This document shows, one piece after another, positions 7,585-47,241 of a stretch of DNA of 47,241 nucleotides. The notes under the pieces were generated by a model. It saw only the letters and a list, made by a program, of their open reading frames with translations. It made no database searches and was not told the origin of the DNA. How positions within the stretch are numbered: position 1 is the first letter of the stretch; every line of letters starts with the position of its first letter. The stretch spans positions 1 through 47,241 of the forward strand of contig MHSA01000001.1 of the NCBI GenBank assembly GCA_001821135.1. Reading direction: 5' to 3'. A program made the translations under genes and the position numbers. Origin of the DNA: Candidatus Taylorbacteria bacterium RIFCSPLOWO2_01_FULL_48_100. Lineage in GTDB: Bacteria; Patescibacteriota; Minisyncoccia; Phycocordibacterales; UBA10002.

Positions 7585-9732
7585 ATGAATCGCGACTATC
7601 CACTTGAACGAGTTCGCAACTTCGGCATTATTGCGCATATTGACGCTGGTAAGACAACCACCAGCGAGCGCGTGCTTTTCTATACGGGAATGACTCACAA
7701 AATCGGCGAGGTGCACGAAGGCGATACCGTAACCGACTGGATGGAACAGGAGCGCGAGCGCGGCATTACGATTACCGCCGCCGCCATTACTTGTTTCTGG
7801 ACGCCGTCGTATGTTGCGAACAAGATCGACAAAGAAAAGAAAATCCGTTTTAATGTTATTGATACACCCGGGCATATTGACTTTACTGCAGAGGTAAAGC
7901 GTAGCTTGCGCGTATTGGACGGCGCGGTCGTCGTGTTTGACGGGGTTGCTGGCGTTGAGCCGCAGAGCGAAACCAACTGGCGCTATGCCGACGAAGGCAA
8001 GGTGCCGCGCATCTGTTTTATTAACAAACTAGACCGCATGGGCGCGTCTTTTGAAAAATCCTACGCTTCCATTCTTGACCGACTGAACAAGCACGCGGTA
8101 CGGATGCAAATTCCGATTGGGCTTGAAGAAAAGTTTGAGGGCGTTATAGACCTCCTCAAAATGAAGGCGTATTACTTTGAGGGCGAGAAGGGGATTGAGG
8201 TGATTGAAAAAGAAATCCCCGCAGAAGAGCTTGAAGATGCGAAAAAGTATAGACATGAATTAGTGGAACGGATTGTTGAAAATGACGATGCCCAAATGAG
8301 TGAGTATTTGGAAGGAAAAGAAATATCAGTAGACGCTCTTAAAAAGACACTTCGCAAAGCGGTAATTGCAAACAAGATTTTCCCAGTGCTTACCGGCTCC
8401 GCGCTCAAAAACAAAGGAGTACAACTAGTGCTTGATGCTGTGGTGGATTATCTTCCATCGCCTTTGGATATTCCGGCGATTTCGGCAATCAATCCAGAAA
8501 CCAATGAACCGGTTGAACGGCACTCATCCGACGAAGAGCCGTTTTCCGCGCTCGTGTTTAAGTTGCAGACAGACCCGTTTGTAGGTCAGCTAGCATTTTT
8601 CCGCGTGTATTCTGGGGCGGTGGAAGCGGGCTCGTATGTGTACAATTCTACAACCGGGAGCCGCGAGCGATTGTCGCGCATTGTGCGCTTGCAAGCGGAT
8701 AAGCGTGAAGAAGTGAAAAAGGTTTTTGCGGGAGAAATTGCCGCGGCGGTGGGGCTCAAAGATGCGAAGACCTCGCACACCCTGTGCGACGAGAAAAGCC
8801 CCGTCGTGCTTGAGCCGATTAAGTTTGCCGACCCGGTTATTTCTATGCGCATTGAGCCGAAGACAAAAGCCGACCAAGAGAAAATGGGTATGTCGCTCAA
8901 GCGCCTCTCGGACGAAGACCCGACTTTCAGAATTAAGAGCGATATGGAAACGGGCGAAACCGTCATTATGGGTATGGGTGAGTTGCAACTTGAAATTATG
9001 GTGGATAGAATGAAGCGCGAGTTTAGCGTGGAAGCGACTGTTGGCAAGCCGCAGGTTGCGTACAAAGAAACTATTCAAGGCGAGGCGGAAGTTGAAAACA
9101 AGTACATAAGGCAGACGGGCGGGCGCGGCCAGTACGGACATGTGAAGATTACCGTAAGACCAATGAAGCCGCTTGTTGAGGGTGCAAAAATTCCGAAAAA
9201 CACGAAGCGGTATGATGACTTTGAGTTCATCAATTCCATCAAAGGCGGCATCATTCCGCAGGAATATATTCCTGCGGTAGAAAAAGGGTTGCGCGAGGGA
9301 ATGGAGCGCGGCGTGGTCGCCGGCTTCCGACTCGTAAACATTTCGTGCGAGCTCTCGTACGGCTCGTATCACGAAGTGGACTCGTCAGAAATTGCGTTTA
9401 AGATTGCTGCGTCCCAAGCGATACAAGAGGCATGCCGCAAAGCTAGACCGGTGCTCCTTGAGCCGATTATGAAAGTGGAAGTGGTAACACCCGAAAAGTT
9501 TATGGGGGATGTGACGGGGCACCTGAACTCCAAGCGCGGCGAAGTGCAGAATGTATTTGACCGCGGTATGAGCAAGGTGGTGGACGCGAAAGTCCCGCTC
9601 GCGGAAATGTTCGGCTACATCACGACGCTTCGCTCAATGTCCGAAGGCCGCGCCTCGTTCAATATGGAGTTCTCGCATTATGCCGCGGTGCCGCCGAATG
9701 TTGCTATTGGTATTATTGAGGCGAGGAAATAA
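7585..9732 (+). CDS. fusA: Translation elongation factor G
   Basis: 715 aa. Motifs: RNFGIIAHIDAGKTTTSERVLFYTG, DTPGHIDFT, and all five EF-G domains. Confidence 0.97.
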   Translation: MNRDYPLERVRNFGIIAHIDAGKTTTSERVLFYTGMTHKIGEVHEGDTVTDWMEQERERGITITAAAITCFWTPSYVANKIDKEKKIRFNVIDTPGHIDFTAEVKRSLRVLDGAVVVFDGVAGVEPQSETNWRYADEGKVPRICFINKLDRMGASFEKSYASILDRLNKHAVRMQIPIGLEEKFEGVIDLLKMKAYYFEGEKGIEVIEKEIPAEELEDAKKYRHELVERIVENDDAQMSEYLEGKEISVDALKKTLRKAVIANKIFPVLTGSALKNKGVQLVLDAVVDYLPSPLDIPAISAINPETNEPVERHSSDEEPFSALVFKLQTDPFVGQLAFFRVYSGAVEAGSYVYNSTTGSRERLSRIVRLQADKREEVKKVFAGEIAAAVGLKDAKTSHTLCDEKSPVVLEPIKFADPVISMRIEPKTKADQEKMGMSLKRLSDEDPTFRIKSDMETGETVIMGMGELQLEIMVDRMKREFSVEATVGKPQVAYKETIQGEAEVENKYIRQTGGRGQYGHVKITVRPMKPLVEGAKIPKNTKRYDDFEFINSIKGGIIPQEYIPAVEKGLREGMERGVVAGFRLVNISCELSYGSYHEVDSSEIAFKIAASQAIQEACRKARPVLLEPIMKVEVVTPEKFMGDVTGHLNSKRGEVQNVFDRGMSKVVDAKVPLAEMFGYITTLRSMSEGRASFNMEFSHYAAVPPNVAIGIIEARK

Positions 9733-9858: not shown

Positions 9859-11055
9859 ATGGCAGAAGAATTTAAACGCGATAAGCCGCATGTCAATGTC
9901 GGCACCATAGGGCATATTGACCACGGCAAGACGACCTTGACCGCAGCGATTTGCTCGGTTCAGGCGAAGAAGGGGCTTGCGAAAGAGCGCAGTTACGACG
10001 AAGTGGCGAAGGCGTCCGAAAAGGAGGGCCGCCGCGACCCGTCTAAAATTATTACCATTGCGATTTCGCATGTGGAATATTCTAGCGATGCGCGCCACTA
10101 CGCGCATGTGGATTGCCCCGGGCACGCGGACTATGTGAAGAATATGATTACCGGCGCGGCGCAGATGGACGGCGCGATTTTGGTGGTGGACGCGGCTGAT
10201 GGTCCGATGCCGCAGACCCGCGAACACATCTTGCTCGCGAAGCAAGTAGGCGTGCCGAAAGTTGTTGTGTTTTTGAACAAGTGCGATTTGGTAACAGATA
10301 AAGAACTGGTTGATTTGGTGGAAGAGGAAGTGCGCGAACTTTTGACCAAGAATGGCTTTGACGGAAAGGGCGCTCCAGTGATTCGCGGTTCTGCGCTAAA
10401 AGCAATTGAAGGCGACCCTGCGTGGGTTGCAAAAATTGATGAACTCTTGAAAGCGCTGGACACCTATATTACAGTTCCGCCACGCGAGGTGGATAAGCCA
10501 TTCCTAATGCCGATTGAAGACATTTTCTCCATTGAAGGCCGCGGAACTGTGGTAACCGGACGCATTGAACGCGGTAAGGTGAAGGTTGGCGAGGAAGTGG
10601 AAATTGTTGGACTCAAGCCGACTGCGAAGACGACAGTTACCGGTATTGAGATGTTCAATAAATCCCTACAGGAAGGTTTAGCCGGCGACAACGCGGGTAT
10701 TTTGCTTCGCGGTACTAAAAAAGAAGAGGTTCATCGCGGGCAAGTGCTTGCAAAAATCGGCTCTGTAACTCCTCATACCGACTTTGAAGCAGAGGTATAT
10801 GTTTTGAAAAAGGAGGAAGGAGGTCGCCACACTCCATTCTTTACGGGCTACAAGCCGCAATTTTACATCCGCACGACCGATGTAACCGGCGAAGTAACGC
10901 TTCCGGAAGGCCGCGAGATGGTAATGCCTGGCGACACGGTTACTTTTAAGGTGAAGCTGGTCGCGCCAGTCGCGCTTGAGAATCAGACGCGCTTTGCGGT
11001 GCGCGAAGGAGGCAAAACTGTGGGCGCGGGTGTTGTAACGAAGATTGTCGCGTAA
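9859..11055 (+). CDS. tuf: Translation elongation factor Tu
   Basis: 398 aa. Motifs: [51 protein letters not shown]. Confidence 0.98.
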
Positions 11056-34297: not shown

Positions 34298-35344
34298 TCA
34301 CATAAGTGATTTAAAAATCTCCGAGAGCGAGCGCGCCCAACGCTCGCTAGTGAAATGAACGAGAACATATACCTGTGCTGTGTTGCCGAGTTGGTTTCCG
34401 AACTGTTTATCGCGCAAAAGCCGTTCTATTGCCGCGCGGAGCGCGGCTGGGTTTTCTGGTTGGACTAGGAGTCCTGTCTTTTCATTTTCTATATAATCGC
34501 GCACGACGGGCTTGTCTGTTGCGATAACGGCCTTGCACGCCGCCATCGGTTCAAGGTAGCCGTATTGACCCGATGTCTCCGAACCTATTGAGTTGTTGGT
34601 GGATTTGAGAGGAGTAACCACAAAGAGCGCGTTGTGGTATAGCGCGGGCATTTCTTCGTATGGCACATTAAAACGCACTTCAACATTTGGTGGAACGATA
34701 AGTCCTGCAATTGCCTCGGTTTTTGTGGCGACAATAACCTTAACTGGCAGGTCGCGCACAGCGTCAAAGAGCGTTTTATAATCGCGCCCTAAGTCGCGGC
34801 CAACGGATAGGATGTAGTCGCTCTGGAATACTCGGTCAGTTCCCCGCGCTCCAACGAACTTTCTCGCATCAATTCCAATCGGCACGAATTTAATTTTCTC
34901 TGATGCAATACCAGCTTCAATAAGCGGCGGCATCTGCGTGCGCGCGGTGCACACAATCACATCCAAACCCTCAATCGCCTTTTTGTTAAACCAATGCAAA
35001 ACGCCGCGCGGATGACGACGAAGCGCGTTTGCGAGGTATGTGTTGTAAATAACGAATCGCGGGTTTTTCCAGTGTAAGATTTTTTTTGCGATAAAAACGA
35101 GCGGAAGCCCCGCGCATATAAACACAATGTCATATTTTTTTATGGCGAAAATATACGGCAGATGCACGAGGTTGAAGGAAATTCGGCGCAGAAACTCCGG
35201 CAAACGCCACTCAATGAATTTTGCGTCTATGCCGAATCTTTCCATATAGTTTAAACCCAGGAGCTGTGTATCTGGCACTTCTCCGCGTTCCCATTTTTCA
35301 TAAAATGCTTTGCGCGAGCCGGCGTATAGATAAAGCACTCTCAT
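34298..35344 (-). CDS. Glycosyltransferase family 4 (GT-B, GT1 superfamily)
   Basis: Start at MRVLYLYAG; the upstream part of the listed ORF is antisense to the methyltransferase. There is an E-x7-E-like region (GYLEPMAACKAVIATD) and the motif TGLLVQPENPAAL. Confidence 0.88.
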   Translation of the reverse strand: MRVLYLYAGSRKAFYEKWERGEVPDTQLLGLNYMERFGIDAKFIEWRLPEFLRRISFNLVHLPYIFAIKKYDIVFICAGLPLVFIAKKILHWKNPRFVIYNTYLANALRRHPRGVLHWFNKKAIEGLDVIVCTARTQMPPLIEAGIASEKIKFVPIGIDARKFVGARGTDRVFQSDYILSVGRDLGRDYKTLFDAVRDLPVKVIVATKTEAIAGLIVPPNVEVRFNVPYEEMPALYHNALFVVTPLKSTNNSIGSETSGQYGYLEPMAACKAVIATDKPVVRDYIENEKTGLLVQPENPAALRAAIERLLRDKQFGNQLGNTAQVYVLVHFTSERWARSLSEIFKSLM

Positions 35345-35346
35345 AT

Positions 35347-35363
35347 GTTGTATAGTATACAAC
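35347..35363. promoter_or_regulatory. Perfect palindrome filling the 22-bp divergent intergenic region
   Basis: gttgtata-g-tatacaac contains TATAGT on the plus strand and TATACT on the minus strand. Each lies about 10 nt from the respective ATG (35367 on plus, 35344 on minus). Confidence 0.35.
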
Positions 35364-35366
35364 GCT

Positions 35367-36041
35367 ATGAAAGCACTTTTGTTAAAGGCGGCACATGCAT
35401 TTGGCTTGACTGATAAGCTTGTGCGGCGGCGCATTGACGCGTTTTTGCAAAAGCATGCGACAAGCGGGCGAACTCTGGATGTCGGCGGCGGGAGCGGACC
35501 GTACAAAAAGTATTTTCCAAACCGCGTATGCATTGACGCGGAAGCCGGAGATGGGGTGGATGTCGTCGGCGACGCGCACGATTTGTCTCGTTTTCGCGAT
35601 GGCGAGTTTGATTGTGTCTTGTGTACAGAGGTACTTGAACACTTGCATACCCCACAGAAAGCGATTGATGAAATGCGCCGCGCGCTTCGCCTTGGAGGGA
35701 CGCTTATTTTGACCACGCGCTTCATTTTCCCCCTCCACAACATTCCCGGTGATTACTTTCGTTTTACACGCTATGGCCTTGCACACCTTTTGCGCGGGTG
35801 GAAGAGCGTAGAGATTGCGGAGGAGGGAACAACCATTGAGGCGCTCGCGGTTCTCTGCGAACGCATTGGGTTTCAGACGGAAACCTTGTGGACAAAACTG
35901 CTTTCTGTTGACTGGTTTATTTTGTCAAAAATTATCCGCCCGCTTTCATTTCTTATTACGAAAGAATACGGAGATGTAACGCGCAAAAGCAAAACGAGAA
36001 ATATATTAACGAGCGGCTACTATATAGTTGCGAAAAGGTAA
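35367..36041 (+). CDS. Class I SAM-dependent methyltransferase
   Basis: 224 aa. It has motif I LDVGGGSGPY and the block FDCVLCTEVLEHL. A deleted paralog is at 44951-45252. Confidence 0.88.
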   Translation: MKALLLKAAHAFGLTDKLVRRRIDAFLQKHATSGRTLDVGGGSGPYKKYFPNRVCIDAEAGDGVDVVGDAHDLSRFRDGEFDCVLCTEVLEHLHTPQKAIDEMRRALRLGGTLILTTRFIFPLHNIPGDYFRFTRYGLAHLLRGWKSVEIAEEGTTIEALAVLCERIGFQTETLWTKLLSVDWFILSKIIRPLSFLITKEYGDVTRKSKTRNILTSGYYIVAKR

Positions 36042-38230
36042 TGAAACAATTTTTCTTCGGACTCCCTATACTCGTGCGCTACTTGATTGCTGGAGGAACT
36101 TCTACGGCAGTTGACCTAGGAATTCTCTATGTACTCACCGAATTTGCAGGATGGTGGTACATTTCGTCAGCAATCGTTGCGTTTATAGTAGCGTTCGCGG
36201 TTAGTTTTGTATTACAAAAGTTTTATACATTCAACAATCGCGATACATCAAGAAAGACGGTCGCTACGCAGGGCGCATTTTATTTTACACTCGCGCTTAC
36301 TAATCTTGGAATCAACACGATTTTAATGTACGCACTCGTGGAATGGGCGGGCGTGTGGTATTTCCTCGCACAAATAATCTCCGCCGCGGCGATTGCCGTT
36401 GAAAGTTTTTTCATATATAGATTTGTGATTTTCCATCCGAAAGCGGTTCTCGCGGAACGAATGACGCGCCTCGTTTCGGTGTTGTTGCGGCATCGCGCGG
36501 CGTTTGTGGTCGCGGTCGCTGTGTCTCTTTTGTACGGAATGCATCATTTTTTAATGCCCCGATTTATGCCGGAAGGGCTAGAATACAAGCCAGTTACCTA
36601 CGAATCAGACCCTGATGCAGGCGGCTATTACGGTCCTCGCGCGAACGCGTTTTTCTCGCGCAACGAAATTACAACCCCATCTTTTTTACCAATCGCGAAT
36701 CCGCTCATTATGGGAGGACTTGGAAAAATGTTGGGGAATATGGAACATGCGTACATTGTTTCCGACTTCATGTTTCCGCCGCTTATTTTTCTAACCGTGT
36801 ATGCGCTTGCGCGCGAACTTTTGCGTAGAAAAACCGCTTCACTGGTACTCTCTTCTGTATTTATTGTTTCTCCGTACGCCGTGCTCTATGTTCCTCCTAT
36901 AAGTGGTTATGCTTTTAAAGAATTTGTTGCACAGTGGTTTCCTTTTTTCTCCGACCCATCCTTGCTATATTTTTCTAGTTTTGAATATCCAAAAATTACC
37001 TTTTTGTTTTATGTTGGTGCTTTGTTTTTTATTTTCCGCGCGCTTGCGCGTGGTGGAAGAAAAAATGTATTGCTTGCGGGTCTTTTCTTTGGCTCGCTGT
37101 TCTATACTTATTTGTACGATTGGGCATATATAGTTGTCTCGCTTTTCATTATGCTGGCGTGGTTTGCTGTTCGTCGGGAATGGGTTCCAGTTAAATCATG
37201 CGCTGGTATTTTTGGTATTGGCGCACTTCTTTCTATTCCGTATTGGCTCAATTTTACCGCCGTGCGCCGACTGCCGCAGTATGGCGACATTATGTTCCGC
37301 ATCGGCGGGATTGAAGTCGGCAGGCATTTTCGTTTTTCGTCCGTTTGGAAGACCTATGCGCGGCATATTGTGTGGATTGCGGCGCTTGCGGCAACCTCAT
37401 TGAAGCGCGCTCCGCGCTCTGTAATTTTTCTAACATCGCTTCTTGCGGCATATTTTGTTGTGGTGAATGTACAAGTGGTTTTAGGTTTTTCGCCTCAGCC
37501 CGACCATTGGTACCGCGAGACATTTTTACCGATAACGCTTGCTTTTGGCGTGCTCTTGGTGTGGCTGTGGGACAGGTATATTGCCACACACATTCCGATA
37601 AAAAAAGTGCGTGCTCTTTTCTTTGTTTTTATCGTCTTATTTTTTGCGCAAGCGTTTTACGGGCAGTATCTTCTGAGCCGCGGGGATGTTGGGCGATGGG
37701 GTATTGAAAAACGCTACGCAAACGCATACGATTGGCTCAATGCAAATACAGACGCAGGAACAACGGTTTGGAGCATCAGTAGAGAAACGAGCCGAGACAT
37801 TATTCTGTTTTCCAGTAATACGGTTTTTCTTCGGAGCGGAGGCACAACACTTGCGTCAAACGAAGAGTTGTGGGAGCGGCTATTTGTCCTTGCGGCTCGG
37901 TGGGAACTGTCTCCAGAACAACTTAGTGTGTTTGCGCATGAAAATACACCGTTCATTTTTCATGATTACTATCGTTCAAGAGAAATGGACAATTATTTTA
38001 AGACGGCGCCAACTCGCTCAATCCCGAATGAAGAGCTCACGCGCCGCGTGAATGCGTATGCAGTTCTGCGATCTCGCCTTGCATCTCCGTCATTTTCCTT
38101 ACAGTATCTTTTTGTCGGACCGCGCGAAGAAAAAATCGCTCCAACACCTCATGCGTTCAAAACAATGCCGCTTGTCTATGAAGCGGAAGGCGTGCAAATA
38201 TACAGATTTAATTATGGAAACAAAGAATAA
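36041..38230 (+). CDS. GtrA-like domain fused to a large polytopic membrane protein (possible GT-C-type glycosyltransferase)
   Basis: 729 aa. The first 130 aa or so are GtrA-like (LIAGGTSTAVDLGILYVLTEF..WWYISSAIVAFIVAFAVSFVLQKFYTF). More than 10 further TM helices and a soluble C-terminal tail of about 170 aa follow. Confidence 0.8.
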   Translation: MKQFFFGLPILVRYLIAGGTSTAVDLGILYVLTEFAGWWYISSAIVAFIVAFAVSFVLQKFYTFNNRDTSRKTVATQGAFYFTLALTNLGINTILMYALVEWAGVWYFLAQIISAAAIAVESFFIYRFVIFHPKAVLAERMTRLVSVLLRHRAAFVVAVAVSLLYGMHHFLMPRFMPEGLEYKPVTYESDPDAGGYYGPRANAFFSRNEITTPSFLPIANPLIMGGLGKMLGNMEHAYIVSDFMFPPLIFLTVYALARELLRRKTASLVLSSVFIVSPYAVLYVPPISGYAFKEFVAQWFPFFSDPSLLYFSSFEYPKITFLFYVGALFFIFRALARGGRKNVLLAGLFFGSLFYTYLYDWAYIVVSLFIMLAWFAVRREWVPVKSCAGIFGIGALLSIPYWLNFTAVRRLPQYGDIMFRIGGIEVGRHFRFSSVWKTYARHIVWIAALAATSLKRAPRSVIFLTSLLAAYFVVVNVQVVLGFSPQPDHWYRETFLPITLAFGVLLVWLWDRYIATHIPIKKVRALFFVFIVLFFAQAFYGQYLLSRGDVGRWGIEKRYANAYDWLNANTDAGTTVWSISRETSRDIILFSSNTVFLRSGGTTLASNEELWERLFVLAARWELSPEQLSVFAHENTPFIFHDYYRSREMDNYFKTAPTRSIPNEELTRRVNAYAVLRSRLASPSFSLQYLFVGPREEKIAPTPHAFKTMPLVYEAEGVQIYRFNYGNKE

Positions 38231-38969
38231 TACCCGTATTTCAATTATTGTTCCTCTATACAACGAAGAGCGCCGTTTGCGTCATACTTTTGCAGCGCTT
38301 GAACGGTTCTGTGTTTCTCTGAGTTCTTCTGTGTTTGAAGTTGTGTTTGTTGATGATGGAAGCACAGACCGAAGCGTAAAACTCGTCCGCGTTTTCATAG
38401 CGCGGTTTCCTCACGCTCGGCTCGTCGGGCACACCCTCAATAGGGGAAAGGGGGCGGCGGTGCGAACTGGAATGCTCGCGGCGCGCGGTAAATGGCGGCT
38501 GTTTCTTGACGCTGATATGGCTACCGACCTCGCCGAATTCACAAAGTTTGTGCCATTTCTCAATGCGGGTGCGCAAGTTTGTATCGGAAGCCGACGTATG
38601 ATAGGGGCGGAGGTGTTGGTGCGTCAGCCAAGGTTGCGCGAAGCGATGGGTGGCGCGTATACAGCACTCGCCAATTTTTTCACCGGCGCTTTGGTATCTG
38701 ATTTTACCTGCGGGTTCAAGTGTTTTTCTGCGGAAGCGGCGGTGGAGATTTTCTCTCGCTCGGTGATTGCGCGCTGGAGTTATGATGCGGAGATACTTTT
38801 TTTAGCACATCGTCTTGGATATACGATTCATGAAGTTCCTGTGGTGTGGAAGAACGATGGTGCGACGCGCGTACGGCTGTGGAAAGACACTCCGCGCGCC
38901 TTTTTTGATTTATTTTATATTCGTGCACGCTCTCTTTTGGGATGGTATCGCTCTATGCAACAACAGTAG
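38214..38969 (+). CDS. GT2 polyprenyl-phosphate glycosyltransferase (DPM1/GtrB-like)
   Basis: Start at METKNNTRISIIVPLYNEE, overlapping the preceding stop by 17 nt. Motifs: VVFVDDGSTDRS, DADM. Confidence 0.88.
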   Translation: METKNNTRISIIVPLYNEERRLRHTFAALERFCVSLSSSVFEVVFVDDGSTDRSVKLVRVFIARFPHARLVGHTLNRGKGAAVRTGMLAARGKWRLFLDADMATDLAEFTKFVPFLNAGAQVCIGSRRMIGAEVLVRQPRLREAMGGAYTALANFFTGALVSDFTCGFKCFSAEAAVEIFSRSVIARWSYDAEILFLAHRLGYTIHEVPVVWKNDGATRVRLWKDTPRAFFDLFYIRARSLLGWYRSMQQQ

Positions 38970-39783
38970 GACGATGTGCAAAGAGCAGTCCGCGCAGTTT
39001 GTTTTCAGGAATTATGCGTACTTCAAAGCCGGATTGTTTTAGTTTTTCAATAATGCGCGAGAGTTTGTGTATTTGCGTATTCAATCCAAAGTACGGAGGA
39101 AGATGGTATTCCATAGCGATTTTGTTGATGTGTGTAAATGTTTCAAGTGGTGCCGCTTCTGTGATTTCATATTCGGCGCCCTCGCAGTCCATTTTAAGAA
39201 AATCGCATTGCGCGATATTTTGTTGTCTCAATAATTCAGCAATGGAGAGCGCGGGAACAGAAACCGAATGTCCTGCGCCGTACAAGCCGTTTCGCGCCGC
39301 ATTACGCGCGTCTAAAAAGAGTTCTCGCACGCCGTCGTCTCCAGCAATACAGATTTGCAATGCGGTAATGTTGTGCATATTGTTGCACGCGATGTTTTTG
39401 GATAGCATGCGATAATTTTCCGGTGACGGCTCGCATGCAACAACACGCGCTCCGCGCGCGTGCGCCAAAAGCGCAAATGAGCCGATGTGTGCGCCTATAT
39501 CAACAACCACATCCCCGTTTTGTATCGCATATCCGTCAGGTTCATATTGGCGTTCTGTGATGCAGGTAAACGCCATATGGCTATCAATGATTTTACTTAT
39601 ATACGAATGGGCGCGTACGCTGATGTGCGGTGCGCCGTTCTCTTGGTATGGAGATCCTCTTTTTGAGAACCAAAAGTTAAACCATGGTAAGAATGGCCAG
39701 CGGACAAATGATGCATAAAAAAAGTCAGTCACTGTGGCGACTGAAATCCATTTTCTGTATAGCGATTGGCGGAATGTCTCCAT
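38953..39783 (-). CDS. FkbM-family methyltransferase
   Basis: 276 aa. Motifs: VVVDIGAHIGSFALLAHARGARVVACEPSPENY, FLKMDCEGAEYEI. It converges on the GT2 gene and overlaps it by 17 nt. Confidence 0.85.
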   Translation of the reverse strand: METFRQSLYRKWISVATVTDFFYASFVRWPFLPWFNFWFSKRGSPYQENGAPHISVRAHSYISKIIDSHMAFTCITERQYEPDGYAIQNGDVVVDIGAHIGSFALLAHARGARVVACEPSPENYRMLSKNIACNNMHNITALQICIAGDDGVRELFLDARNAARNGLYGAGHSVSVPALSIAELLRQQNIAQCDFLKMDCEGAEYEITEAAPLETFTHINKIAMEYHLPPYFGLNTQIHKLSRIIEKLKQSGFEVRIIPENKLRGLLFAHRPTVVA

Positions 39784-39841
39784 AGGAGCGATTGTTGTAT
39801 GCTATGTAGATTACGAGTTTCCAACCACTCGTGCAACCTCT

Positions 39842-40879
39842 ATGCGGCTTCTCTTTATCACACAAGCGATTGACGAGCGCGACTCTGTACTGGGTTTCGT
39901 GTGCGGGTGGCTCAGCGCGTTTGCGGTAGAGTTTACGCATATATCCGTAGTGTGTTTACGGAAGGGCGGATATGATTTACCGAAGAATGTGGAGGTATAT
40001 TCACTTGGGAAAGAGCGCGGCGCACACAGATTTCAGTACGTTTTTCGTTTTTTGCGATATATCTGGCGCAAACACTCCGAATATGATGCGGTTTTTGTGC
40101 ATATGAACCCCGAGTATGTACTCCTTGGATGGCTTATGTGGAAAATACAAGGAAAAAGAGTTGCACTTTGGTACAATCATCAGGCGGGTGGAATCCGTAT
40201 TCGCCTCGCCGCCCTTTTTTCTGATGTACTTTTTCACACCTCGCCGTTTGCCTATACGGCGCGATATAGAAAAGCGGTGCGTATGTCCGCAGGTATTGAT
40301 ACAGTACTTTTCCACAAAACGAATACGCAGAGGCAAAAGAACTCAATTGTTTTTGTTGGGAGAATCGCACCAATTAAGAGATTGGAAATATTGCTTAACG
40401 CGGCGCTTCAGCTCCACAACGAAGGTTCTGATTTCTTTTTGTCGGTGTATGGCGAAAGCGCGCTGTCTGACCGCGCATACGAAAAAAAAATGCGGAAAAT
40501 CGGAGCGCAGCTTGAATCGGTTGGGAGAATTCGCTTTTGCGGCTCCGTGAGACATTCCGAACTGCCGTATGTTTTCTCGGCAAACGAACTCGCCGTCAAT
40601 CTCAGTCCTGCCGGTCTCTTTGACAAAACCGTGCTTGAGGCGGCGGCGTGCGAATGTATTCCGCTCGTATCAAGTCCCGCTTTTAAGAATTTTCTTCCTG
40701 ACTCGCTTTTCTGCAAAGAAAGTGATTCGTTAGATTTACTGCGCAAAATTAAGATGCTTTTATCTCTGTCAACAGAAGAAAAAAAGGCGCTTGGCGAGGC
40801 GCTTCGAGAAAAGGTGGTGCAGGAGCATGGGTTATCTGTCCTCGCACACTCACTCCCACTTCTCCTCTCCAATGACTAA
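39842..40879 (+). CDS. Glycosyltransferase family 4
   Basis: Start at MRLLFITQAIDE. It has the GT-B C-terminal domain (IVFVGRIAPIKR...FDKTVLEAAACECIPLVSS). Confidence 0.85.
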   Translation: MRLLFITQAIDERDSVLGFVCGWLSAFAVEFTHISVVCLRKGGYDLPKNVEVYSLGKERGAHRFQYVFRFLRYIWRKHSEYDAVFVHMNPEYVLLGWLMWKIQGKRVALWYNHQAGGIRIRLAALFSDVLFHTSPFAYTARYRKAVRMSAGIDTVLFHKTNTQRQKNSIVFVGRIAPIKRLEILLNAALQLHNEGSDFFLSVYGESALSDRAYEKKMRKIGAQLESVGRIRFCGSVRHSELPYVFSANELAVNLSPAGLFDKTVLEAAACECIPLVSSPAFKNFLPDSLFCKESDSLDLLRKIKMLLSLSTEEKKALGEALREKVVQEHGLSVLAHSLPLLLSND

Positions 40880-42485
40880 TCTGCGAAACATATTGTTTGC
40901 AATTTTAATTCTCGCGTTCGCGCTGCGTGTTGCCGGGGTGGGGCACGGCTTGCCGCTTCTTGTTGTGGACGACGAACCGCCTTTCGTATTTTCCGCGCTC
41001 AAAATGCTGGAACTTAAAACTCTCGTATTACACGGAGAAAATTTTAAAGATATCCTATATTATCCGCCGTATTTGGCGTACGCACTCCTGCCTTTTTTTG
41101 CGGTTCTCGCAGGTCTTTTGTTTTTCAGATTTGGTTCTCTTGAACTTCTTAAAACATATGTTGCAGCCGACCCGTCTCTTTTTTTTCTAACAGCGCGGAT
41201 TGTCACCGCCGCTCTAGGTGTTCTGTCTGTGTACCTCATATATCGTTTTGCGCGAAATATATGGAAAACGGAAGCCCCCGCTTTGTGGGCGGCATTCTTT
41301 ACAGCAACTAGTTTACTTGCTATTTCGCTCTCTTCTGTGGCGCGGCATTGGACGGCGGTGCTTTTTCTTTTTTCGCTCGTGTTATTTTTCCTATCACACA
41401 CAGCATGGACGGCGCGGAAACGATATGCATTGTCTTTATTTGTTGCCGGCACGAGCTTTGGCGTGGTGGGTGATTTTACTATTTCCTTACTCGCGCTTAT
41501 TGCTCTTTGGTTTTTCTTCTGTGAATGCGATGAATCGCGGTGGAAGTTGCTAAAGAAGTATTGGCTCCCCAGCGCAATAGTGCTCGGATTTTTTTATAAG
41601 TTGCCGCTCTGGCTCTACCCCATCGGCATGGGTTTCAAGGCAGAGACCATTCTCAAGGCTCCATATGTGGTAGATGTTCTGATAGCACCTTTTGCATTTG
41701 GGTATAGCTTTTTTGTTTCAGAGCCGATATTCGCACTTGCCGTTTTTGCAGGAATGTGGATTGCATTAAGAAATTACAAACGGTTTTTCTGCTTGAGCGC
41801 ATGTTTTGCGTACTTATATGCGCTGCTGTTTCTCATTTTTTTCCGTTATGAGGCGCGATTTTTCTTGCCGCTTATTCCGCTCTTTTCCGCGCTTGCCGGG
41901 CTAGCATTTTCGCGCATACGGATGCGTGTCAGCATTCCCGCCGCCCTTCTGATTATTTTCTTGTCTGCGCGCCTCGCGCTGCTCGCTTGGGGAGGAGATA
42001 CGCGCGAACTTGCCCGCGCGTGGGTTGATGGGCATATTCCGGAAAAAAGCCGCATCGCAACATACGGCAAAGGACTCCGGCTTCCAAAGACCAAGGAGGC
42101 GTTTGCGGAACAGGCGGTATTGGACGCGTCATCACTTCGGAGCGCAGACCGTGCGGATGAATCTTTGTCGGAAAGCACTCGCTCCGCGCGACGCTACCAC
42201 GCGCTTAATTTATATGCGCTCCAAAACGATAAGTTGTGGTCTGGTATCACTGAATACCTGGCGCGCAATGACTATCAATTTCTCGCGGTTTCAGAAGATG
42301 GTGGTGATGACTCGCGCGTAATGGAACTAAAAAAGACGGGCGACGCCGGTGCGCTTATACAAGTATTTTCTGGAAGTTATACAGATGGGGTGCGCTATAC
42401 CGACGCGGATTTCAAAGGGGGATTTCCGGCACTCTTTCGCATCCGCGCGCTTGGTCCTGATATGATACTCTATATGTTTAAATAA
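40872..42485 (+). CDS. GT-C-fold membrane glycosyltransferase (ArnT/PMT, GT39/83-like)
   Basis: Start at MTNLRNILFAILILAFALRV, overlapping the upstream stop. An acidic first-loop motif VVDDEPPF is present. There are about 11 TM helices and a soluble C-terminal domain. Confidence 0.8.
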   Translation: MTNLRNILFAILILAFALRVAGVGHGLPLLVVDDEPPFVFSALKMLELKTLVLHGENFKDILYYPPYLAYALLPFFAVLAGLLFFRFGSLELLKTYVAADPSLFFLTARIVTAALGVLSVYLIYRFARNIWKTEAPALWAAFFTATSLLAISLSSVARHWTAVLFLFSLVLFFLSHTAWTARKRYALSLFVAGTSFGVVGDFTISLLALIALWFFFCECDESRWKLLKKYWLPSAIVLGFFYKLPLWLYPIGMGFKAETILKAPYVVDVLIAPFAFGYSFFVSEPIFALAVFAGMWIALRNYKRFFCLSACFAYLYALLFLIFFRYEARFFLPLIPLFSALAGLAFSRIRMRVSIPAALLIIFLSARLALLAWGGDTRELARAWVDGHIPEKSRIATYGKGLRLPKTKEAFAEQAVLDASSLRSADRADESLSESTRSARRYHALNLYALQNDKLWSGITEYLARNDYQFLAVSEDGGDDSRVMELKKTGDAGALIQVFSGSYTDGVRYTDADFKGGFPALFRIRALGPDMILYMFK

Positions 42486-43223
42486 ATGAAAATCACCATT
42501 ATTATTCCAACATATAATGAGATAGATACGATTGGCGCGCTTATTGATAAGCTTTTGCTGGTTTGTGCGGAAATGCCGCAACATATATTCTCTATTCTCG
42601 TGGTAGACAGCAATTCACAAGACGGTACGGCATCTCTGGTGGAAGAAAAAGCGCGCAAGCATGGAACAGTGCATCTTCTAAAGCAAAACGAGAGACGCGG
42701 GCTCGGTTCCGCATATGTACTTGGAATGCAGTACGCTGCCCGCCGCCTCGCCGCGGACGCCTTTATTGAATGCGATGCTGATTTCCAGCACGACCCGCGA
42801 GACATCAAACGGCTCATTACTGAATTTGATAATGGGTACGATTATGTCATCGGTTCGCGATATGTTCCTGGAGGTAGCGTGCCGCATGAGTGGAAATGGT
42901 ACAGGAAAATCATAAGCCGTTGGAGCAATGTGTTTATCAGATTGATTTTGCACATTCCGATCGCCGATGCAACTTCCGGGCTGAAGCTTACGCGCGTACA
43001 GACATTTTCCGAGCGCCTGCCGCTTGAAGAAAGAAAACTCTATTCGCGATTTCATGCTTATAAAATCCATCTCTTGTATTGCATGTTCGCATACGGCGCA
43101 AAAATAAAAGAAGTTCCGATTACATTTCATGAACGCGGCAATGGGGCATCAAAATTGCGAACGATAAAAGATATTGCGGAATCGCTCAAAGTCGTATTCC
43201 TTCTGCGATTAAAAGGCGTATGA
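42486..43223 (+). CDS. GT2 polyprenyl-phosphate mannose/glucose synthase-like (DPM1-like)
   Basis: 245 aa. Motifs: KITIIIPTYNEIDTIG, VVDSNSQDGT, ECDADFQHDP, GSRY. Confidence 0.9.
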   Translation: MKITIIIPTYNEIDTIGALIDKLLLVCAEMPQHIFSILVVDSNSQDGTASLVEEKARKHGTVHLLKQNERRGLGSAYVLGMQYAARRLAADAFIECDADFQHDPRDIKRLITEFDNGYDYVIGSRYVPGGSVPHEWKWYRKIISRWSNVFIRLILHIPIADATSGLKLTRVQTFSERLPLEERKLYSRFHAYKIHLLYCMFAYGAKIKEVPITFHERGNGASKLRTIKDIAESLKVVFLLRLKGV

Positions 43224-44344
43224 AAATCTACTACATTGCCAACGCTCGCATGCCGACCGAGAAGGCGCACGGTATTCAGATTGCGAAAATGAGCGAAGCG
43301 CTCCGCGCGGCAGGCGCTGATGTGACACTTGTTGTCCCTCGGCGCGGAAGTGGCGGCTCGCTCAAAAATGTTTATAATCTTGCGGCTGATATTCCTGTGG
43401 TGCGCATACCAGTTATACCGTACGCGCAAAGTTTTCTTATTGGTTCTGCATCGTTTATGTTTTCCGTGTTTTTCTTTCTTCTTGTGAAAAAAATGATTGG
43501 TAAGAAATTTCTTGTCTACACGATAGATATGGACCAATTTTCTTTTTCGTTCATTCCGTTTCTGGGTGTGCCGTATTTTGTAGAGATTCACGACGCGAAA
43601 CGGCGCGGTGCGCTTTTCAATTTTCTTTTTAAGCACGCGATGGGCGTCTTGACGATTAATCACATCATTAAGAATAAATTATGCGCGAGGTTTGGTCTTT
43701 CGGAAGAAAAGGTCTTGGTTGCTCCGAACGGCATTTCCTATGAGTTCTTTAATGCAGTAAGTATAACGTGCGAACAGGCGCGCGTCGCGCTTGGTCTGCC
43801 GCAGGAAAGTCGCATCGCATTATATGCAGGACAATTTTACGCATGGAAAGGACTTGAGATTTTTGCTGAAGCGGCGCGGCGCGCGCCAAATGTTTTGTTT
43901 TATCTTGCGGGTGGCACGCGCGAATCATTTGAAAAAGTAACAGGCATTCGCGCTCTTCAGGAGAATATCTTATTTGGCGGTATTCGCCCATACAAAGAGA
44001 TGCCGCTTTTGATGCGCGCGGCAGACGCTCTTATCGTGCTTGGTACAAAACGCGACGAGTATTCATACTTCCACACCTCTCCTATGAAATTGTTTGAGTA
44101 TCTACCGATAGGAAGGCCGATTGTTGCATCGCGCACGCCCGCGATCGCTGATATGGTTTCCGAAAAAGAAGTATTTTTTTACGAACCGGATAACGCGGAA
44201 AATATGGCGCACGCTATAGTGGAGGCAATTCGCAATAAAACAGTTGCGGCAACAAAGGTCGCATCGGCGCGCGCGCTTGCCGAAAGATATACCTGGGAAA
44301 CCCGCGCCGAATCCGTTCTTGCGAAAATGATTTCACGCAGGTAG
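43220..44344 (+). CDS. Glycosyltransferase family 4
   Basis: 374 aa. Motifs: MKIYYIANARMPTEKAHGIQI and the GT-B C-terminal domain (YAGQFYAWKGLE...SPMKLFEYLPIGRPIVAS). Confidence 0.88.
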   Translation: MKIYYIANARMPTEKAHGIQIAKMSEALRAAGADVTLVVPRRGSGGSLKNVYNLAADIPVVRIPVIPYAQSFLIGSASFMFSVFFFLLVKKMIGKKFLVYTIDMDQFSFSFIPFLGVPYFVEIHDAKRRGALFNFLFKHAMGVLTINHIIKNKLCARFGLSEEKVLVAPNGISYEFFNAVSITCEQARVALGLPQESRIALYAGQFYAWKGLEIFAEAARRAPNVLFYLAGGTRESFEKVTGIRALQENILFGGIRPYKEMPLLMRAADALIVLGTKRDEYSYFHTSPMKLFEYLPIGRPIVASRTPAIADMVSEKEVFFYEPDNAENMAHAIVEAIRNKTVAATKVASARALAERYTWETRAESVLAKMISRR

Positions 44345-44353
44345 TATTTATTT

Positions 44354-44944
44354 ATGCTTAAATCAATTGGCTTGAAAAGCAGTTCTGCATTAAAAGGGGG
44401 GACTGCTTTGCGCTTTGTTACTGATATTTCAAAACGGCATTTTCGCGGTTCTTCCGAGATTGAGCTTCTGGATGTGGGATGCGGCGCAGGACATTTCTTG
44501 AGATCATTGCCGCCAATCTTTCGCGGTACGGGCGTTGATTACAATGGACTCGCGGCGCAGTCGGTTAATATTTCGTATGAGCGGCTTCCATTTCCCGATT
44601 CCTCGTTTGACATAGCAACCGCGTGGCAGGTATTGGAGCATTTAGAGAATCCATTTTTTGCTGGACGCGAAATACACCGCGTGCTTCGTCCCGAAGGAAT
44701 CTTTATCTTTTCGGTGCCGAACATCAAACATATACGCACGCGCATGCATTTCTTTCTTTCTGGCGGCATTTTGCGCTGGAACAAACGCAATGACCATCTA
44801 TTTGTTCCGCTTGAAGCGGTGCTCAAAAAGAGATTGTTTCAAGGATTTTGTATGATAAATAGGGTATATGCTGATGGACCTGCGATTTTGCCGGCACATT
44901 TTCTTTTTGCAAAAAATGAATATTGGGTGCTCCAAAAAGATTAA
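44354..44944 (+). CDS. Class I SAM-dependent methyltransferase
   Basis: 196 aa. Motifs: LLDVGCGAGHFL, FDIATAWQVLEHLENP, LRPEGIFIFSVPN. Confidence 0.88.
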   Translation: MLKSIGLKSSSALKGGTALRFVTDISKRHFRGSSEIELLDVGCGAGHFLRSLPPIFRGTGVDYNGLAAQSVNISYERLPFPDSSFDIATAWQVLEHLENPFFAGREIHRVLRPEGIFIFSVPNIKHIRTRMHFFLSGGILRWNKRNDHLFVPLEAVLKKRLFQGFCMINRVYADGPAILPAHFLFAKNEYWVLQKD

Positions 44945-44950
44945 AAAACA

Positions 44951-45252
44951 ATGAAAGCTTTTTTATTGAAAATTGCCGATAAGATTGGTCTGACCGACAA
45001 ACTTGTGCGGCGGCGTATAGACGCGTTTCTGCAAAAACACGCGACTTGTGAACGAACACTGTTCTTTGCGAACGCATTGGGTTTCAGACAGAAACATTAT
45101 GGACAAAACTGCTTTCTGTTGATTGGCTTATTTTGTCAAAAATTATTCGCTCACTTTCCTTTCTTATTACGAAAGAGTACTGCGATGTAACGCGTAAAAG
45201 CGAAACGCACAATATTTTAACGAGTAGGTATTTCGTTACGGCGAGAAAGTGA
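44951..45252 (+). pseudogene. Internally deleted, frameshifted copy of the 35367-36041 methyltransferase gene
   Basis: The N-terminus MKAFLLKIADKIGLTDKLVRRRIDAFLQKHAT matches MKALLLKAAHAFGLTDKLVRRRIDAFLQKHAT. After a junction at 45061/45062 the sequence matches the 3' end of the intact gene (CERIGFQTETLWTKLLSVDW...) in another frame. About 373 bp, including the SAM motifs, is missing. Confidence 0.8.
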
Positions 45253-46386
45253 TATGAGTTCGTCCGCAACGCGCGCGACCATCTCTACTGTAATGTCGTC
45301 GCTTTGGCGGCGGGCTTCTAGTTCGTTATACACGGTGTTGTCAATGATGCCGAGCGCGGGTTTCTCGCGCGGCGCGGCAACGGTGCGGTGGAGCTCACCT
45401 TGCGGCGGTTGAATGTTCTCATACATCGGTCCAACAATGTCAATCGTTGGCGTACTGAATGCCTCGGCAATATACACAGGTCCCGTGTCTGCGCTTATGA
45501 AGAGCGAAAGCGAGGCGATAAGCGCTTTTAATTCTTCAATAGAAAGGAGATTATACAAGTTAACTGCGCGTGTTGAAGGAGAAATCTGCGTGAACATTGT
45601 TTCAACATCGGCGTGGTCCTTGCCGCTTCCAAGTACGAGAATTTTCGCGTTGTGTTTTTGCGCGAGTTCATCGGCAAGTCCTGCAAATTTTTCAGGTGCC
45701 CAACATTTTATGGGGTCGCCGCCGACTCCAGGGAGTATACCGACAATTAAATCTCTTTTTGCATCTAGATTTTCTTTTTGTAGAAGCGCTTGTACGCTTT
45801 TCACCGCTTCCTCCGAATAGGCAAGTTCTTTGCGCGTGTTGCTCGTATGGATGCCGAGCGGTTCAAGGAGCCGCAAATATTCGCGCGGCACATAGCGTTC
45901 GTTATAGTGTGGTACAACAATAACGGCTCGAAGAAGTTTTTTGTAGGTGCGTGTTTCGTATGGAGAATATCCGCCAACAATTTTAGGCGCGGCAATTGAT
46001 TTAACGCCGGCAACGATAAGGAGTGCTAGGCCATAGAGCGACGGAAGAGGAAGAATTCCGAAATCTGCGCGCTCGCGCGCTAGGACGCGCGCGGCGCGCC
46101 AGAAGCTTTTTTCAATAACAATATAGTGGTCCACTTGAGGATGTCCATAGAGCAGTTTTTGATTGACCGCATCACCAACGACCACCAACCGCGAATGAGG
46201 ATAGGTATTTTTAATGGCGCGGAAAAGAGGGGTTGTGCAGACCATATCGCCGAGTTTAGCACCCTGCACGATAGCAATCGTCCGTGGGTTTTGAGGCGCG
46301 CGTCCGCGCGCGCCGCGCAAGGCAATATGCGCGTACGCCGCAACAAAAAGCCATAGATTATACAGCTGATGCGATAACGCTTTCAT
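45217..46386 (-). CDS. Glycosyltransferase family 9 (heptosyltransferase-like)
   Basis: 389 aa. Motifs: IAIVQGAKLGDMVCTTPLFRAIK, ILPGVGGDPIKCWAPEKF, ISADTGPVYIAEAF. Confidence 0.85.
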   Translation of the reverse strand: MKALSHQLYNLWLFVAAYAHIALRGARGRAPQNPRTIAIVQGAKLGDMVCTTPLFRAIKNTYPHSRLVVVGDAVNQKLLYGHPQVDHYIVIEKSFWRAARVLARERADFGILPLPSLYGLALLIVAGVKSIAAPKIVGGYSPYETRTYKKLLRAVIVVPHYNERYVPREYLRLLEPLGIHTSNTRKELAYSEEAVKSVQALLQKENLDAKRDLIVGILPGVGGDPIKCWAPEKFAGLADELAQKHNAKILVLGSGKDHADVETMFTQISPSTRAVNLYNLLSIEELKALIASLSLFISADTGPVYIAEAFSTPTIDIVGPMYENIQPPQGELHRTVAAPREKPALGIIDNTVYNELEARRQSDDITVEMVARVADELISLSRRNEIPTR

Positions 46387-46449
46387 GCTTGATAATAATG
46401 ATTTTATACGGTACTATAACATTCTTAACGGGCGTTTTGTTTTTATAGT

Positions 46450-47241
46450 ATGTGTGAGCAAATTATCGTATTGGGCGCAGACCACAATGGAGTCGCATTA
46501 AAATCAGAAGTCAAAAAACTTCTGAACGACTCCGGTTTTTATTGTATTGATATCGGTTCGCACACTGACAGTGAGAAGGTTGATTATACAGATTATGCGC
46601 ATACGCTCGGGTTCATCGTGCACAATGGGGACGCGGCGCGTGGCGTGCTTATATGCGGTACCGGAGTTGGTATGTCCATTGCCGTGAATCGCTTTCAGAA
46701 TGTGCGCGCCGCGCTCGCGCACAGCGTTCTCGTCGCGCAAAAAACAAGAGAACATAATGATGCGAATGTGTTGTGCCTTGGCGCGTGGGTTGCAACACCG
46801 TTTGGCGAAGGGAGACATGTGCGGCGGGTGGAAAAAACAAAAACGCACTCGCGCGAGAAAATTGTTTTCACGAACGGCATTTTTGATATTTTACACAAAG
46901 GGCACATTGAACTCTTTAAGTTTGCGAAATCTCTCGGCGGGCGGCTAGTGGTCGGCATCAATTCCGACCGTGCGACGAAGTTGCTCAAAGGAAAAAACCG
47001 ACCAATCAATTCCGCGCCGGAAAGAAAAGCGACGCTTGAAAACATACAATACATTGACCAAGTCGTTATTTTTGACGACACAAAAACAGTAGACATTATC
47101 AGTGATATTAAACCGCATATTGTCGTCAAAGGCGGCGAATGGACTGCAGAAGAAGTTCGTACGCGCGACAGGATTCCGAAAAATATAGAAGTGAAAGTGT
47201 GTCCGCTCGTTATGCAAGCATCGGGAATTAAATACTCTTCA
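46450..47241 (+). CDS. Fusion protein: RpiB/LacAB-type sugar-phosphate isomerase domain plus RfaE-II/HldC-type cytidylyl/adenylyltransferase domain; 3' end outside the window
   Basis: I checked the frame from the ATG at 46450 codon by codon to 47241 and found no stop. The ORF track does not list it because no stop lies inside the window. The N-terminal part has IIVLGADHNG...ICGTGVGMSIAVNRF...EHNDANVLCLGA...GRHVRRV. The C-terminal part has KIVFTNGIFDILHKGHIELFKFAKSLGGRLVVGINSD. Confidence 0.8.
   Translation, partial: MCEQIIVLGADHNGVALKSEVKKLLNDSGFYCIDIGSHTDSEKVDYTDYAHTLGFIVHNGDAARGVLICGTGVGMSIAVNRFQNVRAALAHSVLVAQKTREHNDANVLCLGAWVATPFGEGRHVRRVEKTKTHSREKIVFTNGIFDILHKGHIELFKFAKSLGGRLVVGINSDRATKLLKGKNRPINSAPERKATLENIQYIDQVVIFDDTKTVDIISDIKPHIVVKGGEWTAEEVRTRDRIPKNIEVKVCPLVMQASGIKYSS

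Follow-up and report, generated by a model that had tools for sequence, protein, structure and literature searches.

The window analysed here is the whole of a 47,241-nucleotide contig (MHSA01000001.1, hereafter C1) of Candidatus Taylorbacteria bacterium RIFCSPLOWO2_01_FULL_48_100. A gene at its 3′ end (46450–47241, forward strand) encodes an RpiB-type sugar-phosphate isomerase fused to an HldC-like nucleotidyltransferase (NT). The fusion, together with the gene cassette that accompanies it in other genomes, is a real, widespread, and uncharacterised variant of the nucleoside diphosphate (NDP)-heptose type of pathway. The bifunctional enzyme probably heads a conserved and horizontally mobile cassette, which would make a nucleotide-activated C7 or C8 sugar independently of GmhA for a GT9 glycosyltransferase and surface glycans. 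Neither the fusion nor the cassette was found to be described in the literature searched.

Architecture of the fusion protein

The frame that starts with the ATG at 46450 runs for 264 codons without a stop and is still open at 47241, where the window ends, in an open reading frame (ORF) listing that allowed open ends, as stated in an earlier note on this DNA. Because the window is the entire contig C1, one of the 25 contigs of a 644,823-bp genome, the contig boundary truncates the gene, and it was missing from the ORF track because the list omits frames that run off the end. Alignment with 288-residue relatives from Parcubacteria metagenome-assembled genomes (MAGs), which are the closest ones (77–79% identity), indicates that approximately 10 residues are missing from the C-terminus. 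The motifs that the earlier note had quoted for an RpiB-type and an HldC-type half, GTGVGMSIAVNRF, EHNDANVL, and FTNGIFDILHKGH, are all found in the translation. Hidden Markov model (HMM) searches recovered both domains. Pfam LacAB_rpiB matched residues 6–115 (E = 7.9e-39, 133.2 bits; cut-off 24.7) and CTP_transf_like matched residues 140–248 (E = 3.9e-18), and the NCBIfam RpiB subfamily model gave 136 bits on the fusion protein. The TIGR00689 score (133.1 bits; cut-off 88.3) places the N-terminal domain within the RpiB/LacA/LacB family, as does PF02502. We examined 168 fused sequences for architecture and signature, and all of them hold both domains in one frame, which confirms the single-ORF fusion. 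A frameshift or two-gene artefact was ruled out, because the frame is continuous in the window and in all homologues.

The RpiB-type domain spans residues 6–133 (46465–46848, forward strand), as delimited by the Pfam and NCBIfam matches and by invariant columns. Its catalytic residues are kept, with Asp11, His12, Cys69 as the base, Thr71, the ring-opening His102, and Asn103, and so is the R-H-x-x-R motif (Arg122, His123, and Arg126); all are invariant in the alignments. The AlphaFold model of an intact relative, P0004 (predicted local distance difference test, pLDDT, 89.1; predicted template modelling score, pTM, 0.54), consists of two separate domains. Foldseek searches with the two halves of the model matched RpiB from Clostridium thermocellum (3HE8; template modelling score, TM, 0.88 and 45% identity) and HldC (5xf2; 42% identity). 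The C. thermocellum enzyme, to which intact fused relatives are 45% identical, and also Escherichia coli RpiB/AlsB have the same fold as the N-terminal domain, and the Asp-His, Cys, Thr, His-Asn, and R-H-x-x-R residues are common to both sides.

In contrast to these enzymes, the fused clade has an altered phosphate site. Position 113 (LdRpiB/MtRpiB numbering) is Trp in 168 of 168 fused sequences, whereas it is Arg in ordinary RpiBs (8 of 9 stand-alone RpiBs and the group with the Gly/Ala-Cys-Arg signature). In type B isomerases, Arg113 is listed as one of the residues that anchor the phosphate (PMC4783025). All 168 fused sequences have Asn at position 13, in place of the Gly or Ala of ordinary RpiBs. 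The fused domain is also set apart by its invariable location inside a nucleotide-sugar cassette. On the rpiB equivalog model TIGR01120 (cut-off 138.65), P0004 scored just above the cut-off (142.1 bits) and the window copy below it (123.8 bits). Among 119 close stand-alone matches, 16 (e.g. P0155, P0156, and P0158) bear a third signature, Arg13 with Asp113, and this group is distinct from both the canonical Gly/Ala-Cys-Arg type and the fused Asn-Cys-Trp type.

The window copy further differs from stand-alone RpiBs by the loss of one helix. Protein alignments indicate that it is devoid of 14 residues between LGAWV and TPFGEGRH, which are present in 19 of 19 aligned relatives. The DNA alignment exhibits a clean 42-nucleotide in-frame gap in the copy as assembled, and the Trp113 codon and the junction of the deletion lie at 46786–46794 (forward strand), with the deletion placed at 46791/46792. 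The deleted stretch corresponds to residues 115–128 of the intact relatives. In the P0004 model, residues 117–129 form a helix that precedes the R-H-x-x-R phosphate-binding segment. The deletion may have disabled the RpiB domain of the window copy. A separate RpiB encoded on contig C2 of the same genome could make the loss tolerable; it is of the Glu-base type, is 33% identical, and lies between genes for GAPDH, Rpe, and a split transketolase, surroundings that represent a pentose-phosphate operon.

The NT domain occupies 46858–47241 (forward strand), and HldC is by far its top-scoring transferase family. The rfaE_dom_II model (TIGR02199; cut-off 181.5) gave 130.7 bits over residues 130–244 of the truncated window copy and 134.5 bits with full-length P0004, which is still under the cut-off. 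The nearest solved structure is Burkholderia pseudomallei HldC (42% identity; 5xf2 by Foldseek), with which the domain shares the fold and the HxGH motif (HKGH at residues 149–152, 46894–46905). The window ends inside a second motif, KYS(S/T)T in the relatives, with KYSS at the contig end. The Arg of the 'STTR5' motif is absent from the fused NT, and Lys-Tyr is present there instead. The HldC-type assignment of the earlier note is therefore well supported (130.7 bits versus 54 for TagD, in addition to the structural match). TagD and ECT are also among the PDB matches, and a TagD-like second domain was ruled out by the scores (54 bits for glycerol-3-phosphate cytidylyltransferase versus 131 bits for HldC). 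The C-terminal domain would perform the last step of activation, in which a sugar-β-1-phosphate and ATP yield an ADP-sugar and pyrophosphate. We chose ADP as the nucleotide because of the similarity to HldC, the GT9 partner, and the absence of the 'STTR5' Arg. Tang et al. listed monodomain, didomain (kinase/NT), and tridomain (isomerase/kinase/NT) architectures of heptose transferases (PMC11573728), and RpiB::NT is not among the three.

The conserved cassette and its distribution

In a synteny survey, 79 genome loci were fetched, HMMs were built from the partner proteins, and all ORFs were scored. The full fusion was present in 44 distinct loci, 33 of which extend at least 5 kb downstream and are the basis of the partner counts. 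A PfkB kinase, a cupin, a transaldolase (TAL), and a HAD phosphatase of any type were each found in 33 of 33 loci. The phosphatase is HAD-IIIA-like in 29 loci and HAD-IA in 6. In 29 of the 33 loci, a GT9 gene is found no farther than approximately 8 kb from the fusion gene, and an AraD-like epimerase is encoded in 16. The kinase gene lies no more than 300 nucleotides from the fusion gene in 37 of the 44 loci. Loci from Parcubacteria, Doudnabacteria, and Woesearchaeota each combine GT9, RpiB::NT, PfkB, Aldolase_II, and TAL_FSA.

The full-length PfkB partner in the closest relative (locus L005) has rfaE_dom_I as its top model (151.5 bits versus 79 bits for ribokinase; rfaE_dom_I cut-off 345). 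One partner of 363 residues is a cupin fused to a HAD-IIIA domain, and GmhB is a member of the HAD-IIIA class. The Aldolase_II partner resembles AraD (L-ribulose-5-phosphate 4-epimerase; 213 bits). The cassette TAL is of the fsa/talC type (approximately 125 bits), with Glu and Phe at positions that we take to separate transaldolases from fructose-6-phosphate aldolases. The cupin gave a confidently folded bicupin model (pLDDT 95.5), and its sequences weakly matched Pfam MannoseP_isomer (20 of 27) and Lyx_isomer, the D-lyxose isomerase family (18 of 27). Its C-terminal barrel contains invariant residues (Lys124-Tyr-Trp-Gly, Glu154, His156, Lys159, Glu161, His200, and an acidic cluster), which are kept in viral single-barrel forms of 145 residues.

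In the genome of the window, one part of the cassette would lie at the end of C1 and the other at the start of contig C25. The first gene on C25 is a PfkB kinase fragment that covers the C-terminal 183 residues (top model rfaE_dom_I, 82 bits; cut-off 345), followed by a 238-residue cupin, a β-phosphoglucomutase (β-PGM)-type HAD protein, an unassigned reverse-strand ORF, a GIY-YIG gene, the sole TAL gene of the genome, and TylF-type methyltransferases. C25 very probably follows C1 across a gap of approximately 0.4 kb, because the closest relative has the C25 gene order directly 3′ of its fusion gene. Candidates for the kinase and phosphatase steps, for which the earlier note had suggested a search, are present: an HldA-like PfkB kinase, a cupin, a HAD protein, and a TAL are encoded at the start of C25 and after the fusion gene in relatives. 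A tblastn search of the genome for the missing tail of the fusion protein gave no match. The GIY-YIG nuclease gene (115 residues, C25 3012–3359) ends 4 nucleotides inside the start of the cassette TAL gene (3356).

A profile search of the window's genome for GmhA (TIGR00441), which the earlier note had suggested, gave no match, and LpxC was likewise not found there. The genome has a single NT-domain gene. TIGR00441 also had no match in five carriers from the candidate phyla radiation (CPR) and DPANN, whereas nine carriers with large genomes encode GmhA (175–205 bits) away from the cassette. A housekeeping TalB is likewise encoded by the large-genome carriers, and they usually have a second RpiB as well (two RpiB genes were found in 10 of 14 carrier genomes). 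The RpiB and TAL of the cassette are therefore dedicated copies in these organisms, and the cassette is probably not a mere duplicate of the canonical ADP-heptose route. CPR and DPANN carriers have no TAL other than that of the cassette.

Some related cassettes have no fused RpiB. The Nealsonbacteria locus L061 has an NT, kinase, cupin, and TAL cassette, and the only RpiB of its genome is canonical and lies beside Rpe. A second Nealsonbacteria locus (L056, 9380–12866) encodes a TAL::NT fusion (354 residues), a kinase, and a cupin::TAL fusion (483 residues), and thus has two TAL domains; no RpiB was found in its 0.6-Mb MAG. The NT fusions in other lineages are NT::GmhA, TAL::NT, NT::HAD, and the canonical kinase::NT, and thus the fusion partners are always pathway members. 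Duplicated transferases were observed as well. The L018 locus (7623–9017) and P0002 encode RpiB::NT::NT proteins of 441–464 residues with two tandem HldC-like domains. Many cassettes of Acidobacteriaceae and Woesearchaeota contain a further transferase that stands alone and is more HldC-like (153 bits), and the two transferases of such cassettes may differ in substrate.

A search of 5.8 billion proteins returned 2658 matches. The best 120 all have both Pfam domains in 284–310 residues, and one further match is a 441-residue form with two transferase domains. The databases name the members 'ribose 5-phosphate isomerase B' or 'rfaE ... nucleotidyltransferase chain'. Clustering at 50% identity leaves only about a dozen full-length representatives of the fused family; therefore, it is tightly conserved rather than diverse in sequence. 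The earlier note had proposed a survey of this fusion, and it proved to be widespread, with 168 fused homologues of one conserved architecture. The CPR carriers are Parcubacteria, Taylor-, Kaiser-, and Doudnabacteria, and 'Saccharibacteria' MAGs, and the DPANN carriers are Woese- and Pacearchaeota. The other carriers include many Acidobacteriaceae/Terracidiphilus, Bryobacterales, Armatimonadota, Gemmatimonadota, several Proteobacteria, and a single-amplified genome of Pelagibacteraceae. The fusion is not confined to organisms that make no lipopolysaccharide (LPS): it also occurs in Acidobacteria, Proteobacteria, and viral contigs, and the large genomes tested have a canonical GmhA as well.

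In IMG/VR, 39 viral contigs carry the full fusion, in the order RpiB::NT, kinase, AraD, cupin (the 145-residue monocupin), TAL, and HAD. The deposited phage genomes of INPHARED gave single-domain matches only and no full-length fusion. In a tree of the fusion proteins, the window copy is placed beside Parcubacteria Gr01-1014_17. One clade of the tree is made up of DPANN sequences and another of Acidobacteriaceae, and sequences from Acidobacteriota and Armatimonadota are nested within a CPR clade, a topology that indicates horizontal transfer. Near-identical fusion genes and cassettes (tree distances ≤0.016) were observed in L032, L033, and L034, which come from MAGs labelled Longimicrobiales, Acidobacteria, and Gammaproteobacteria. 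Either the contigs were mis-binned, or the element moved very recently and may be viral. A cultured cyanophage, Synechococcus phage S-SM2 (L092, NC_015279.1 146703–161089), has a heptose-type cluster that consists of a free HldC-like transferase, a carbohydrate kinase, two small 'phosphoheptose isomerase' genes, a class II aldolase/adducin, a transketolase-like gene, and glycosyltransferases. This cluster is an example of an AraD-like partner in a GmhA-type setting.

Predicted pathway and competing explanations

The cassette encodes, in order, RpiB::NT, an HldA-like PfkB kinase, a phosphomannose isomerase-like cupin, a small TAL, and a HAD phosphatase, sometimes with AraD and usually with GT9 nearby. 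We propose that its product would be a nucleotide-activated seven- or eight-carbon sugar, most likely ADP-linked and of the β-manno type. The TAL would make a ketose phosphate, either sedoheptulose-7-phosphate (S7P) from fructose-6-phosphate (F6P) and erythrose-4-phosphate or octulose-8-phosphate from F6P or S7P and ribose-5-phosphate (R5P). The RpiB domain would act upstream on a sugar phosphate that feeds the TAL, in the simplest case by supplying the aldose-phosphate acceptor. The cupin would then convert the ketose phosphate to a manno-type aldose phosphate, which is the task of GmhA in the canonical route. The PfkB kinase is predicted to phosphorylate O-1, the HAD enzyme to remove the distal phosphate, and the HldC-like domain to form the ADP-sugar from the sugar-1-phosphate and ATP. 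GT9 would finally transfer the sugar. In this scheme, the cupin rather than RpiB is more likely the substitute for GmhA, because of its weak isomerase matches, its invariant residues, and the existence of cassettes without a dedicated RpiB.

Several observations weigh against this scheme. For the NT, kinase, TAL, and AraD-like partners alike, the NCBIfam scores fall short of the equivalog cut-offs. The roles within the cassette and the identity of the sugar are predictions from sequence. The isomerase role of the cupin rests on weak sequence matches and conserved ligands, and a Foldseek search with the cupin model found generic bicupins only (e.g. oxalate decarboxylase and vicilins). If the RpiB domain only supplies R5P, the invariant changes of Arg113 to Trp and Gly13 to Asn at its phosphate site are left unexplained. 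The genome of the window has no HAD-IIIA and no AraD, and the HAD protein beside its cupin is a β-PGM-type HAD-IA. No suffix–prefix overlap or shared 20-mer joins the end of C1 to any contig, and the adjacency of C25 is deduced from synteny. The taxon labels of MAGs are predictions that are open to mis-binning, and the 'viral' status of the IMG/VR contigs is also predicted.

Several known systems are close to the proposed route. In lincomycin biosynthesis, LmbR, LmbN, LmbP, LmbK, and LmbO lead to GDP-octose, starting with a transaldolase reaction on R5P (PMC4351081, PMC5854111). Both routes combine a dedicated transaldolase, which is present here in 33 of 33 loci, with an isomerase, a kinase, a phosphatase, and a nucleotidyltransferase. 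The enzyme families differ: the Lmb route uses a GmhA-like isomerase and a GDP-type transferase, whereas the cassette pairs a cupin with a kinase of the PfkB type and a transferase of the HldC type, and adds RpiB. In the cassette, as in HldC systems, the transferase is accompanied by a PfkB kinase that resembles HldA, a HAD phosphatase, and GT9. However, even the full-length fused NT does not reach the rfaE_dom_II equivalog cut-off (134.5 versus 181.5 bits), and it is joined to RpiB instead of the kinase; the cassette has no SIS-type GmhA, and its cupin and TAL are obligatory. Further parallels are multidomain enzymes containing GmhA, namely the tridomain type of Tang et al. and the NT::GmhA proteins of Pyrinomonadaceae and Chloracidobacterium, in which an isomerase-family domain and an HldC-type NT also form one polypeptide beside a PfkB kinase and GT9. 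In L064, L073, and L083 (Pyrinomonadaceae/Acidobacteria MAGs, approximately 9995–11023), HldC::GmhA proteins of 335–350 residues have the NT at the N-terminus and the SIS isomerase at the C-terminus, and the gene is followed by an HldA-like kinase and GT9. HldC::GmhA is a different isomerase–transferase fusion of the canonical pathway. Its isomerase has the SIS fold and is not accompanied by a cupin and TAL, whereas the protein described here has an RpiB fold at its N-terminus.

The parallel with NT::GmhA suggests that the RpiB domain itself could replace GmhA, as the earlier note had implied, by converting S7P or another heptulose phosphate to a heptose-7-phosphate; the cupin would then have another role such as epimerisation. 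The lack of GmhA matches in CPR and DPANN carriers favours this explanation, and the altered phosphate site (Trp113 and Asn13, 168 of 168) could suit a longer substrate. The RpiB/LacAB family accepts C4–C6 substrates, and NCBIfam lists DerI, LacAB, and AlsB-type relatives. However, a cupin is present in every cassette, even in those without a dedicated RpiB (L061 with a canonical RpiB only, and L056 with none). Intact members score above the rpiB equivalog cut-off (142.1 versus 138.65 bits) and are close to C. thermocellum RpiB (45% identity), and the RpiB of the window has lost a helix while the rest of its cassette looks intact. RpiB-type enzymes yield sugars whose C2 hydroxyl group has the ribo/allo/galacto configuration, whereas homologues of HldA, HldC, and GT9 expect the manno one. 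We therefore consider a direct replacement of GmhA by RpiB possible but rather unlikely. A somewhat better, although still tentative, case can be made for an octose version of the proposed scheme, in which RpiB supplies R5P (or another pentose-5-phosphate with the AraD-like enzyme) and the TAL adds C3 to give octulose-8-phosphate and, eventually, ADP-octose. It assigns a job to every conserved domain, and it explains why viruses and large genomes that have S7P, TalB, RpiB, and GmhA still carry an RpiB and a TAL of the cassette. LmbR, which uses F6P or S7P as a donor and R5P as an acceptor, is a precedent (PMC4351081, PMC5854111). On the other hand, the kinase, NT, and GT9 are nearest to heptose-specific families, and a supplier of R5P needs no Trp113. 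The sole TAL of CPR and DPANN genomes is that of the cassette and may simply be a pentose-phosphate enzyme. To our knowledge, no ADP-octose has been described.

Two other explanations give the fusion no part in making a heptose or octose. A housekeeping pentose-phosphate RpiB might have been joined to HldC by chance in streamlined genomes, which would have no significance for the pathway. This appears improbable. Members are indeed labelled merely 'ribose 5-phosphate isomerase B' by NCBI and JGI, and the fused copy is the only RpiB-family gene in two DPANN genomes. Nevertheless, the pentose-phosphate operon of the window's genome contains an RpiB gene distinct from the fusion, an invariant signature marks the fused clade, and the fusion and gene order are kept in genomes of 5–8 Mb and in viral contigs. 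It is very improbable that the two domains catalyse consecutive pentose steps, from ribulose-5-phosphate to R5P and then, by adenylylation of the 5-phosphate, to an ADP-ribose-like compound rather than a glycosyl-1-phosphate nucleotide. Consecutive steps are often united in one fusion protein, some members of the cytidylyltransferase superfamily act on primary phosphate esters (TagD and ECT are among the PDB matches), and the second, more HldC-like NT of many cassettes could perform the canonical step. However, the fused NT is far nearer to HldC (130–134 bits) than to TagD (54–58 bits). The genome of the window has one NT-domain gene, so the kinase/phosphatase route, if it works at all, must rely on the fused NT.

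Returning to the cassette as a GmhA-independent route, a more specific and clearly speculative form of the proposal combines these elements. The cassette might be a self-contained mobile route to ADP-octose or a non-canonical heptose epimer, starting from pentose phosphates and using a retuned RpiB (Trp113/Asn13), an optional AraD-like epimerase, a dedicated TAL, and a metal-dependent cupin in place of GmhA. It would be common to CPR, DPANN, Acidobacteria, and viruses and serve their surface glycans.

Neighbouring genes and implications

The fusion gene is divergent from a gene for a 389-residue GT9 protein of the heptosyltransferase-like type (45217–46386, reverse strand; PF01075, 65.8 bits; cut-off 22), in agreement with the earlier note. 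The heptosyltransferase II and III models gave 79–86 bits with this protein, which are under their cut-offs. The intergenic spacer of 63 bp (46387–46449) contains promoter-like sites for both genes, TTGATA-17-TACTAT at 46389–46417 on the forward strand and another at 46428–46401 on the reverse strand; both are consensus matches only. Three such matches were observed in 46250–46600, compared with 0.6 expected. A second GT9 homologue is encoded on contig C14 of this LpxC-less genome (1879–3111; 255 bits to a purpose-built GT9 profile).

A surface-glycan gene cluster, identified by Pfam scans, lies on the far side of the GT9 gene (34298–44944). It encodes a GT4 (34298–35743, reverse strand), a GtrA-domain membrane protein (36041–38230), a GT2 (38052–38969), a GT4 (39734–40879), a PMT_2-like GT-C (40791–42485), a GT2 (42486–43223), a GT4 (43220–44344), and an S-adenosylmethionine-dependent methyltransferase (44354–44944). 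The gene order of the cluster is the same in the closest relative. The adjoining GT9 gene and this cluster support the previous suggestion that a nucleotide-sugar route feeds the nearby glycosylation genes.

If the proposed route is correct, thousands of proteins labelled only 'ribose 5-phosphate isomerase B' would be reinterpreted as enzymes heading a route to activated higher sugars that needs no GmhA. The Arg113-to-Trp RpiB clade and the phosphomannose isomerase-like cupin both offer directly testable enzymology. ADP-heptose-type molecules are agonists of innate immunity (PMC11573728), and new producers or analogues such as an octose would be of interest for this reason. The route would also provide a defined surface-sugar pathway for CPR and DPANN organisms, which have no LPS and very few biosynthetic genes, and it would be a pathway shown to move between domains of life and viruses.

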